Source: Candidatus Nomurabacteria bacterium
GTDB lineage: Bacteria > Patescibacteriota > Minisyncoccia > Phycocordibacterales > UBA9973
Direction: 5' to 3'
Length of the DNA: 64,000 nucleotides
NCBI GenBank assembly: GCA_026396065.1
Contig: JAPLXO010000011.1
Coordinates: forward strand, 74,748-138,747
Under the pieces are notes generated by a model, which ran no database searches, was not told the DNA's origin, and saw only the letters and a program-made list of their open reading frames with translations. A program made the translations under genes and the position numbers. Shown here in pieces: positions 32,993 to 33,480 of the stretch (position 1 is its first letter; every line of letters starts with the position of its first letter).

Positions 32993-33049
32993 GGCCCTAT
33001 CGTCCCCGCCTGCCCTCCCGTAGGTCGGGAGCGGGCAGGTAACGGTTAG
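32993..33049 (+). pseudogene. duplicated 5' fragment of tRNA-Glu (22 nt) interrupted by a family-B palindromic element
   Basis: ggccctatcgtc + [35-nt palindrome] + t + aacggttag equals the first 22 nt of the intact tRNA-Glu at 33337; a second family-B element follows directly. Confidence 0.55.
33005..33039. repeat. GC-rich palindromic mini-element (family B)
   Basis: cccgcctgccctcccgtaggtcgggagcgggcagg; near-identical to the atpD copy. Confidence 0.55.
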
Positions 33050-33085
33050 CCTGCCAGCCCTCCTGTTAGTCGGGAGCAGGCTGGG
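33050..33085. repeat. GC-rich palindromic mini-element (family B variant)
   Basis: cctgccagccctcctgttagtcgggagcaggctggg. Confidence 0.5.
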
Positions 33086-33097
33086 ACAAGAATAAAT

Positions 33098-33358
33098 ATG
33101 TATTTTATATATGTATTAAAAAGTAAAAAGGATAACAAATTATACTATGGTTTAACCGATAATCTTGAAAGAAGAATAAGGCAACATAATAGTAAAGAGG
33201 TTACAGCGACAAAATATCGTACACCACTCGAGTTAGTTTATTTTGAAAAAGTAGATACGTTGACAAATGCAAGAAAAAGAGAAAAGTATTTTAAAAGTGG
33301 ATTTGGAAGAAAGTATATCGCAAGAAAAATAAAATCGGCCCTATCGTCTAACGGTTAG
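33098..33358 (+). CDS. GIY-YIG nuclease-family small protein
   Basis: MYFIYVLKSKKDNKLYYGLTDNLERRIRQHN is the GIY-YIG motif; the ORF's last 22 nt, including the stop, are the 5' end of tRNA-Glu. Confidence 0.7.
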   Translation: MYFIYVLKSKKDNKLYYGLTDNLERRIRQHNSKEVTATKYRTPLELVYFEKVDTLTNARKREKYFKSGFGRKYIARKIKSALSSNG

Positions 33359-33408
33359 GACACATCCTTCTCAAGGATGGAATCAGAGTTCGATTCTCTG
33401 TGGGGTCA
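33337..33408 (+). tRNA. tRNA-Glu (anticodon CTC)
   Basis: ggccctatcgtctaacggttaggacacatccttctcaaggatggaatcagagttcgattctctgtggggtca: acceptor GGCCCUA/UGGGGUC (two GU pairs), D GUCU/GGAC, anticodon stem CAUCC/GGAUG loop UUCUCAA, T CAGAG/CUCUG loop TTCGATT. Confidence 0.7.
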
Positions 33409-33419
33409 CACTTGACTTT

Positions 33420-33480
33420 TAATACTAAATATGCTATACTAGCCAAGGTGTGAGTTTTTTGATATTTTGATATTTAGTAT
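33420..33480. repeat. 12-bp perfect inverted repeat immediately downstream of tRNA-Glu
   Basis: aatactaaatat ... atatttagtatt with a 35-nt spacer. Confidence 0.4.

Follow-up and report, generated by a model that had tools for sequence, protein, structure and literature searches.

How an intact tRNA gene comes to stand behind a broken copy of its own 5′ end, with a gene for a very small nuclease between the two, is the question raised by a locus of a Candidatus Nomurabacteria bacterium (contig JAPLXO010000011.1) that lies near the middle of a 64,000-nucleotide (nt) stretch of DNA, referred to here as the window. One of the two tRNA genes called by ARAGORN in this window is an intact tRNA-Glu(CTC), and upstream of it are found a split duplicate of its first 22 nt, two GC-rich hairpins and an open reading frame (ORF) encoding an 86-amino-acid (aa) GIY-YIG protein. 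The arrangement is a real feature and not the product of chance, and appears to constitute a tRNA-associated new form of the Ssn-type nuclease/hairpin system. The reading favored here, to which a probability of roughly 0.6 is assigned, is that of a selfish cassette in which a single-domain, Ssn/Slx1-like GIY-YIG nuclease and its own GC-rich hairpin repeat occupy the tRNA-Glu gene. Such a cassette is probably mobile as well as selfish, by a mechanism that we infer below.

The main parts of the locus were first described in an initial annotation, made by a model from the bare sequence, and most of them were recovered as reported (Table 1), including the intact tRNA, the 22-nt duplication divided by one palindrome and followed by a second, and the 86-codon ORF lying between the two tRNA copies. 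The claim that the last seven codons and the stop of this ORF are supplied by the tRNA is slightly off, as the 22-nt overlap comprises six sense codons and the stop and, of a seventh codon, the final base alone. By our own estimate, exact matches as long as these two (12 and 10 nt), collinear and no more than ~350 nt from the copied gene, have a chance expectation of ~1e-9, and a search with the hairpin pattern returned 2 matches against 0 in 100 shuffled sequences. Both 35-nt hairpins are confined to the 95 nt upstream of the ORF, with none downstream. The upstream 22-nt copy was called neither as a tRNA by ARAGORN nor as any Rfam family, which leaves the annotation’s own reservation, that the match might be part of another functional RNA, without support. 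A promoter-like site ends 10 nt before the tRNA 5′ fragment and, to judge from its sequence, is presumed to be the original tRNA-Glu promoter, today driving the whole cassette.

The cassette is not peculiar to this genome. A comparison set was assembled from 39 genome loci encoding relatives of the ORF and from a metagenome scan that began with the hairpin, the loci being labelled L001 and so forth, and the same layout was found at ~20 tRNA species, mostly in bacteria of the candidate phyla radiation (CPR), as the annotation had anticipated in proposing a search for further GIY-YIG minigenes at tRNA 5′ ends. At ~28 of the 39 loci, a same-strand tRNA (Glu, Phe, Arg, Lys, Thr, His, Leu and Asn among them) starts between -61 and +35 nt from the ORF stop; when a range of -45 to +110 nt is considered, a tRNA on the same strand adjoins the stop of 32 of the 51 family ORFs in the retrieved loci. 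Nearly all of the tRNA-adjoining loci carry a copy of the 5′ end of their own tRNA upstream of the ORF, split by a GC-rich hairpin (Glu, Arg, Lys, Thr, Leu, Asn, His, Ser and others), in the order -10-like box, fragment A, hairpin, fragment B, 1-20 nt, ORF, intact tRNA. The -10-like boxes of the related loci were judged by eye. Since the ORF family abuts so many tRNA species, each with its own 5′ copy, the arrangement is the outcome of insertion or replacement rather than of chance, in accord with what the annotation had proposed for the single locus. The insertion point of hairpin H1, between tRNA nt 12 and 13, is common to L003, L005, L006, L007, L009 and L160; hairpin H2 resembles the single hairpin of L160 in sequence, and the hairpin of L008 sits likewise after nt 22.

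The closest relative, L160, whose protein is 78% identical, helps to delimit the element. The block common to it and the window extends from nt 1 of the fragment exactly to the 3′ end of the tRNA, and the neighboring genes differ. A 12-bp inverted repeat that the annotation had placed with the element just 3′ of the tRNA does exist, but is not part of the conserved unit; it is left out of the feature because it falls outside the shared block and overlaps a promoter-like site of the next gene. This site directly follows the tRNA and, going by its sequence, may together with the inverted repeat form the promoter/operator of an orphan gene encoding 210 aa.

Table 1. Features of the tRNA-Glu locus and of the remainder of the window, in window coordinates
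Feature	Position	Strand	Evidence or remarks
Intact tRNA-Glu(CTC), functional copy	33337-33409	+	ARAGORN; Rfam tRNA, 57.6 bits against a gathering score of 29
GIY-YIG nuclease ORF, 86 aa	33098-33358	+	Pfam PF01541, E=4.4e-16; stop codon formed by tRNA nt 20-22
Fragment A, exact copy of tRNA-Glu nt 1-12	32993-33004	+	12/12 match
Fragment B, exact copy of tRNA-Glu nt 13-22	33040-33049	+	10/10 match
Hairpin H1, 35-nt GC-rich palindrome CCCGCCTGCCCTCCCG-TAGGT-CGGGAGCGGGCAGG	33005-33039		Between fragment nt 12 and 13; DNA fold -13.3 kcal/mol
Hairpin H2, 35 nt, same family	33050-33084		80% identical to H1; ORF start 13 nt downstream
Promoter-like site TTGATT, 16-nt spacer, TG-TATATT	32955-32982	+	9/12 matches, TG extension
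Solo hairpin of the same family, in frame in atpD	8313-8350		atpD at 7060-8445 (-); +12 aa
12-bp perfect inverted repeat 3′ of tRNA	33421-33432 / 33470-33481		Real; outside block common with L160
Promoter-like site TTGACT, 17 nt, TG-TATACT	33412-33481		Site directly after tRNA; interval also takes in the 12-bp inverted repeat, which the site overlaps
Orphan gene, 210 aa	33552-34184		
Second GIY-YIG gene, 80 aa	57094-57336	-	PF01541, E=1.6e-15; 38% identical to the first
Paralogous Cys-rich genes (~560-580 aa)	55299-57035, 57387-59063		Flank the second GIY-YIG gene
AT-rich palindrome CGATTCTGATAAATCAGAATCG	~57049-57070		After the second GIY-YIG gene
Palindrome family CCCCTCTCCTTAWTAAGGAGAGGGG, five copies	10034-10056, 10097-10119, 10414-10438, 29439-29463, 60198-60220		Copy 29439-29463 nested in larger inverted repeat 29411-29475
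GC-rich palindrome GCGCCGCGACGCGCATAGCGTCGCGGCGC	45831-45859		Isolated
Palindrome GGCGGACAAATTCATC..GATGAATTTGTCCGCC	61058-61091		Isolated; GC-rich ends

Whether the hairpins are a component of the cassette or latecomers to it is the point on which the initial annotation and the present reading part. The annotation took the displaced tRNA fragment to have been invaded later by palindromic elements; in its fuller form, this alternative holds that a single insertion of a GIY-YIG homing or integrative element brought a replacement 5′ part, and that unrelated mobile palindromes subsequently struck the leftover fragment, such neutral targets being few in a compact genome. We regard this as unlikely. 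A hairpin is present in nearly every cassette, and its termini are conserved (CCYGCCWGCC...GGCWGGCRGG) around a variable middle, for a total length of 19-62 nt, the minimal form being the perfect palindrome CCTGCCTGCCGGCAGGCAGG. The distance from hairpin end to ORF start is held within a narrow 10-34 nt, although the interrupted tRNA position varies from 5/6 to 24/25. Across 269 kb, 20 of 31 hairpin matches lie no more than 130 nt upstream of an ORF start, a zone that amounts to 2% of the sequence, and two of the three family hairpins in the window are in or adjoin the 22-nt tRNA fragment. A neighbor-joining tree of the ORFs resolves three main groups, with the Glu-linked ORFs monophyletic, and the subtype of a hairpin corresponds to the clade in which its adjoining protein falls (C-type in 10 of 13, G-type in 10 of 11 and M-type in 9 of 10). 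In other bacteria, moreover, the ORF is found between the halves of the same palindrome. On account of the constant spacing, the covariation of subtype with clade and this last arrangement, the hairpin is assigned to the nuclease, to which it appears to belong, rather than to an unrelated later invader.

The elements that carry the ORF within the palindrome are of Desulfobacterales type (L014, L020, L026 and L031), and have CCCGCCCGCCTCGCCTGAGCGAG as the left half and GGCTCGCGATGGCGGGCAGG as the right. An ORF-containing element of ~327 nt is 87% identical from end to end between two genomes whose flanks are unrelated, and its removal in silico restores host ORFs of the PF13366 PD-(D/E)XK family, with the profile match running across the restored junction. 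The elements of L014, L020 and L031 interrupt multi-copy genes of this family (PF13366, ‘GxxExxY’-like) at varying positions. Taken as comparisons of sequence, these alignments show that the ~327-nt element inserts precisely into genes and without target duplication, that the C-type hairpins of CPR bacteria are the joined two ends of the ORF-containing element, and that hairpins lacking an ORF are dispersed copies of these joined ends.

Such solo hairpins are abundant and speak for palindromes as independent invaders. An exact-match metagenome scan for the minimal hairpin found it on at least 120 contigs and, among the matches listed, to which the following counts also refer, ~110 of 121 sites (~92%) lie apart from any nuclease gene, so that hairpins are able to spread, or to persist, on their own. 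They occur in protein-coding DNA and on either strand, including other neutral or tolerant places, as typified by the copy in frame in atpD of the window; alignment of AtpD to F1-beta chains in the PDB reveals that this 36-nt hairpin adds exactly 12 residues after ‘ALEVIL’. The hairpin by itself shares several properties with miniature inverted-repeat transposable elements and with Rickettsia palindromic elements (RPEs), being short, palindromic, multi-copy (three in the window), ORF-less and tolerated in frame. The later-invasion account may also draw on the double hairpins in the fragments of the window, L133 and L138, which suggest repeated hits, and on 3′ tRNA remnants that bear hairpins too (L074 and L091). 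Minimal hairpins interrupt tRNA fragments at 9 of 121 sites compared to 3 of 1210 control junctions. The insertion junctions in tRNA and host genes are exact; no inverted repeats were seen flanking the solo sites, and direct repeats of at least 7 nt flank only 3 of the 121. Insertion of hairpins into the loops of pre-existing hairpins was considered and rejected, the complementarity of the flanks being no higher than at control positions.

The encoded protein itself does not resemble the enzyme that an inserting homing element would be expected to carry. PF01541 spans residues 1-72 of the 86-aa protein, and the AlphaFold2 model forms one compact domain (pLDDT 93.9). Among solved structures, UPF0213 BH0048 and the nuclease domain of Slx1 (TM 0.66, 1.8 Å over 72 columns) come closest to it in fold, with I-TevI far behind. 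As modeled, the protein consists of a single GIY-YIG nuclease domain with an Slx1/UPF0213-like fold. It has no DNA-binding domain and is therefore not a homing endonuclease of the I-TevI type, contrary to the homing-endonuclease fold invoked by the initial annotation; TIGR01453 scores 17.5 bits on it against a cut-off of 56. Homologues number 160, mostly from Patescibacteria/CPR, with intact ORFs conserved at 50-78% identity. Across 42-120 of these, Tyr16, Gly18, Arg26, His30, Glu50, Glu62 and Lys66 are invariant, and Tyr5 is nearly so (97% of 120), such that the catalytic tyrosines of the GIY and YIG motifs, the Arg and the metal-binding Glu are all conserved in the family. No relative of the protein was found in viral contigs, and a phage origin of the cassette was discarded on that basis.

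The nearest functional precedent is provided by the Ssn family of single-domain GIY-YIG nucleases (~94 aa; CDD cd10448), which bind the NTS/SRM hairpin repeats flanking their own genes and cleave single-stranded DNA immediately upstream of them (Chenal et al., Nat Commun 2025; PMC11893778). In that study, the unit ‘NTS-ssnA-NTS’ was likened to an insertion sequence, SsnA was found to modulate transformation in N. meningitidis, and many SRMs were noted in Rickettsia; neither tRNA nor Patescibacteria is mentioned (PMC11893778). The cassette nuclease matches Ssn in concept. The 86-aa ORF is 37.5% identical over 72 aa to a hairpin-flanked GIY-YIG protein of S. meliloti, and UPF0213 proteins are similarly distant from it. 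The systems have in common a single-domain GIY-YIG protein of ~80-100 aa without a DNA-binding domain, a gene flanked by hairpin repeats of 20-50 nt that also occur elsewhere in the genome, the insertion-sequence-like form repeat-gene-repeat, and a multiplicity of protein/hairpin pairs, each with sequences of its own. They differ in that the hairpin of the cassette is unrelated to NTS in sequence, the hosts are CPR/Patescibacteria, the gene resides in a tRNA leader behind a hairpin-split 5′ tRNA duplicate, and the cassette family offers direct comparative evidence for precise insertion.

The tRNA copies themselves record some of the history of these loci. The upstream fragment and the functional tRNA represent different alleles in L006, L009, L024 and L033, and some of these differences are also encountered as natural variants in other genomes, which fits the import of one of the two copies. 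In L033, ~52 nt centered on the hairpin of a resident-type tRNA-Leu are duplicated on either side of a unit composed of the ORF and a different tRNA-Leu. In L118 (positions 1-200), ends of the hairpin type, CCGCCTGCC...GGCGGGCAGG, enclose an intact tRNA-Val within the anticodon region of a degenerate second tRNA-Val; the D-arm of the latter contains a minimal hairpin as well, and its T-arm a further palindrome. A comparable nesting is displayed by L074 (175-375), where an intact tRNA-Ala(CGC) with the AT-richer inverted repeats TCTGCTATTGCCT / AGGCAATAGCAGA on either side follows nt 38 of a second tRNA-Ala, the 3′ part of which has a minimal hairpin in the T-arm. Downstream 3′ tRNA remnants occur in L074, in L091 and in L001/L005/L011/L022. 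In L001 (3310-3499) and L005 (1011-1196), a conserved stretch of ~175 nt downstream of tRNA-Glu has GTGGCCCC and an AT-rich hairpin at its start and the final 15 nt of tRNA-Glu at its end; it may derive from a further, disrupted copy of tRNA-Glu or be what is left of a different element.

A mechanism for the selfish cassette can be proposed from these observations. A single transcript started at the tRNA promoter would run from the fragment through the hairpins and the ORF into the tRNA, which RNase P would then free; the nuclease would therefore be expressed at the expense of the tRNA gene, and its full-length translation at the window locus would require the unprocessed transcript. By analogy with SsnA, the enzyme would bind its own hairpin in single-stranded DNA and cut shortly to the 5′ side. 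The corresponding cut on the complementary strand would fall 10-30 nt to the right of the hairpin, at the end of the tRNA fragment or start of the ORF. The ORF, together with part or all of a tRNA copy, might then be joined at the break in a resident tRNA gene, thereby displacing the resident 5′ end and supplying an intact tRNA, and the tRNA-derived sequences at both ends would provide homology for spread to the same tRNA gene elsewhere.

Several observations weigh against this proposal. The model requires a hairpin in an essential tRNA gene before or during insertion, an ordering that it leaves unexplained, and nothing is seen that would shield the intact downstream tRNA from tRNA-directed cleavage. 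Most minimal hairpins of the metagenome sample are solo and far from any nuclease gene, and the scarcity of direct repeats around them rules out target duplication by solo hairpins, so that the idea of a staggered cut rests mainly on L033. The hairpins show no strand bias in stability, with the sense strand the more stable in 12 of 21 cases, and their selection on the sense strand as RNA or as non-template single-stranded DNA was ruled out on this ground. The fragment of the window is identical to its tRNA (22/22), and this locus gives no sign of the import of one copy. No orthologous empty site was found for the window locus, its closest cassette lying among different genes, because the flanking 210-aa gene is an orphan with no homologue besides itself. 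Finally, the published SRM motif (HGTCWY...RNCYNB) matches neither H1, H2 nor the atpD copy, nor any other part of the window.

A bolder extension of the selfish-cassette reading would see in it a new class of hairpin-guided mobile element, in which a minimal nuclease specific for single-stranded DNA cuts beside its own hairpin, the hairpin disables a resident single-copy tRNA gene and a replacement tRNA is supplied beside the nuclease gene, such that the host cannot lose the cassette without losing the tRNA. This would amount to addiction, or to a gene-replacement drive, in reduced genomes, and L033, L118 and L074, each with an intact tRNA nested in a hairpin-riddled copy, would be its intermediate stages. 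The proposal is speculative and unlikely.

That the nuclease is instead a domesticated host enzyme is quite improbable. Under this alternative, it would be expressed from the tRNA promoter for a purpose such as trimming incoming single-stranded DNA at hairpins during transformation, the role proposed for Neisseria SsnA, and the split fragment would be a fossil leader. The effect of SsnA on transformation in N. meningitidis and the conservation of intact ORFs over their whole range of identity would both be in keeping with such a function, as would the monophyly of the Glu-linked ORFs, which is compatible with long vertical descent. A host function is difficult to reconcile, however, with the presence of cassettes at ~20 different tRNA species and with the fact that, among the retrieved loci, the tRNA species that have the cassette (34 cases) also occur in other genomes lacking it (39 cases). 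The two closest Glu cassettes have different flanking genes, copies in L036-L039 and L138 are pseudogenised or fragmentary, and the discrete 327-nt copies interrupt host genes.

Still less credible is an element acting at the level of RNA, with the hairpin as a tRNA mini-intron or processing signal, or with fragment and hairpin belonging to a functional or regulatory RNA, for instance as an alternative partner of the acceptor stem through which maturation of the tRNA or translation of the ORF is controlled: the fragment would be transcribed if the promoter call is correct, and it equals the tRNA in L007 and L008 despite their diverged tRNA sequences, but deletion of the hairpin restored a full-length tRNA at none of 127 sites, the fragments are decayed or different in L006, L009 and L029, and the lack of a sense-strand bias in stability, the hairpins in protein-coding DNA on either strand and the absence of any Rfam match all argue to the contrary.

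The cassette shares individual traits with several better-known elements. In the REP/BIME-RAYT (repetitive extragenic palindrome/bacterial interspersed mosaic element and REP-associated tyrosine transposase) and IS200/IS605 (insertion sequence) systems, the latter with palindromic derivatives that lack the ORF, hairpins are recognized as single-stranded DNA by a small nuclease encoded adjacently. Like these, the cassette combines short GC-rich hairpins with an adjoining small nuclease gene, ORF-less copies outnumber the gene, and target duplication is lacking. Unlike these, its enzyme is a GIY-YIG protein rather than an HUH/Y1 transposase, such that no covalent strand-transfer chemistry is expected, and tRNA genes are its preferred home. 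RPEs are palindromes found in frame in essential protein genes of a reduced genome, and to our knowledge no nuclease has been assigned to them; the atpD insertion is of the same kind, although the cassette hairpins are shorter (19-62 nt) and GC-rich. A free-standing mitochondrial endonuclease ORF is reportedly inserted in atp6 of Allomyces with duplication of the gene end, and the endonuclease gene of phage T4 SegB is said to lie in a tRNA gene cluster. The fungal mitochondrial ORFs and SegB resemble the cassette in placing a small nuclease gene beside a partial duplicate of a host gene, with one copy functional and the other a remnant, and in spreading, as is proposed for the cassette, by recombination through homology to the host gene, but their enzymes possess DNA-binding domains and cut double-stranded sites, the duplication is usually at the 3′ end, and there is no cognate hairpin. 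Islands and prophages that target tRNA genes by means of tyrosine integrases likewise leave the tRNA intact and the insert flanked by a direct repeat of part of it. The cassette departs from them in its length of ~340 nt, in duplicating the 5′ end, in the interruption of the repeat by a hairpin and in lacking an integrase, the nuclease being the sole ORF between the tRNA repeats. In the literature searched on GIY-YIG proteins in connection with tRNA or Patescibacteria, on COG2827/UPF0213 and on target duplication or hairpins, a cassette in a tRNA leader is not described, nor does a paper on tRNA introns in CPR bacteria mention the layout.

Beyond the locus, the window contains a second GIY-YIG gene, flanked by two paralogous genes for Cys-rich proteins, which has neither a tRNA nor a GC hairpin beside it and is followed by an AT-rich palindrome. 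The five copies of the CCCCTCTCCTTAWTAAGGAGAGGGG palindrome, presumably the family A of the initial annotation, are unrelated in sequence to the nuclease-linked hairpin, and two further palindromes are isolated (Table 1).

Among the questions that the Ssn study left open are the roles of such tiny nucleases outside Neisseria and the mobility of ‘hairpin-gene-hairpin’ units. The second of these is addressed here by comparison, through 327-nt copies with exact junctions and through ORF-less derivatives, one of which lies in frame in an essential ATP synthase gene. The tRNA leaders of CPR bacteria constitute a second stereotyped habitat for units of this kind, and the constant distance from hairpin to fragment end predicts where the nuclease cuts. 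If the reading is correct, the family would offer many natural nuclease/hairpin pairs for single-stranded-DNA tools, would identify a source of annotation error in ORFs that read into tRNAs, and would explain overlooked rearrangements of tRNA genes and pseudo-tRNA fragments in reduced genomes.

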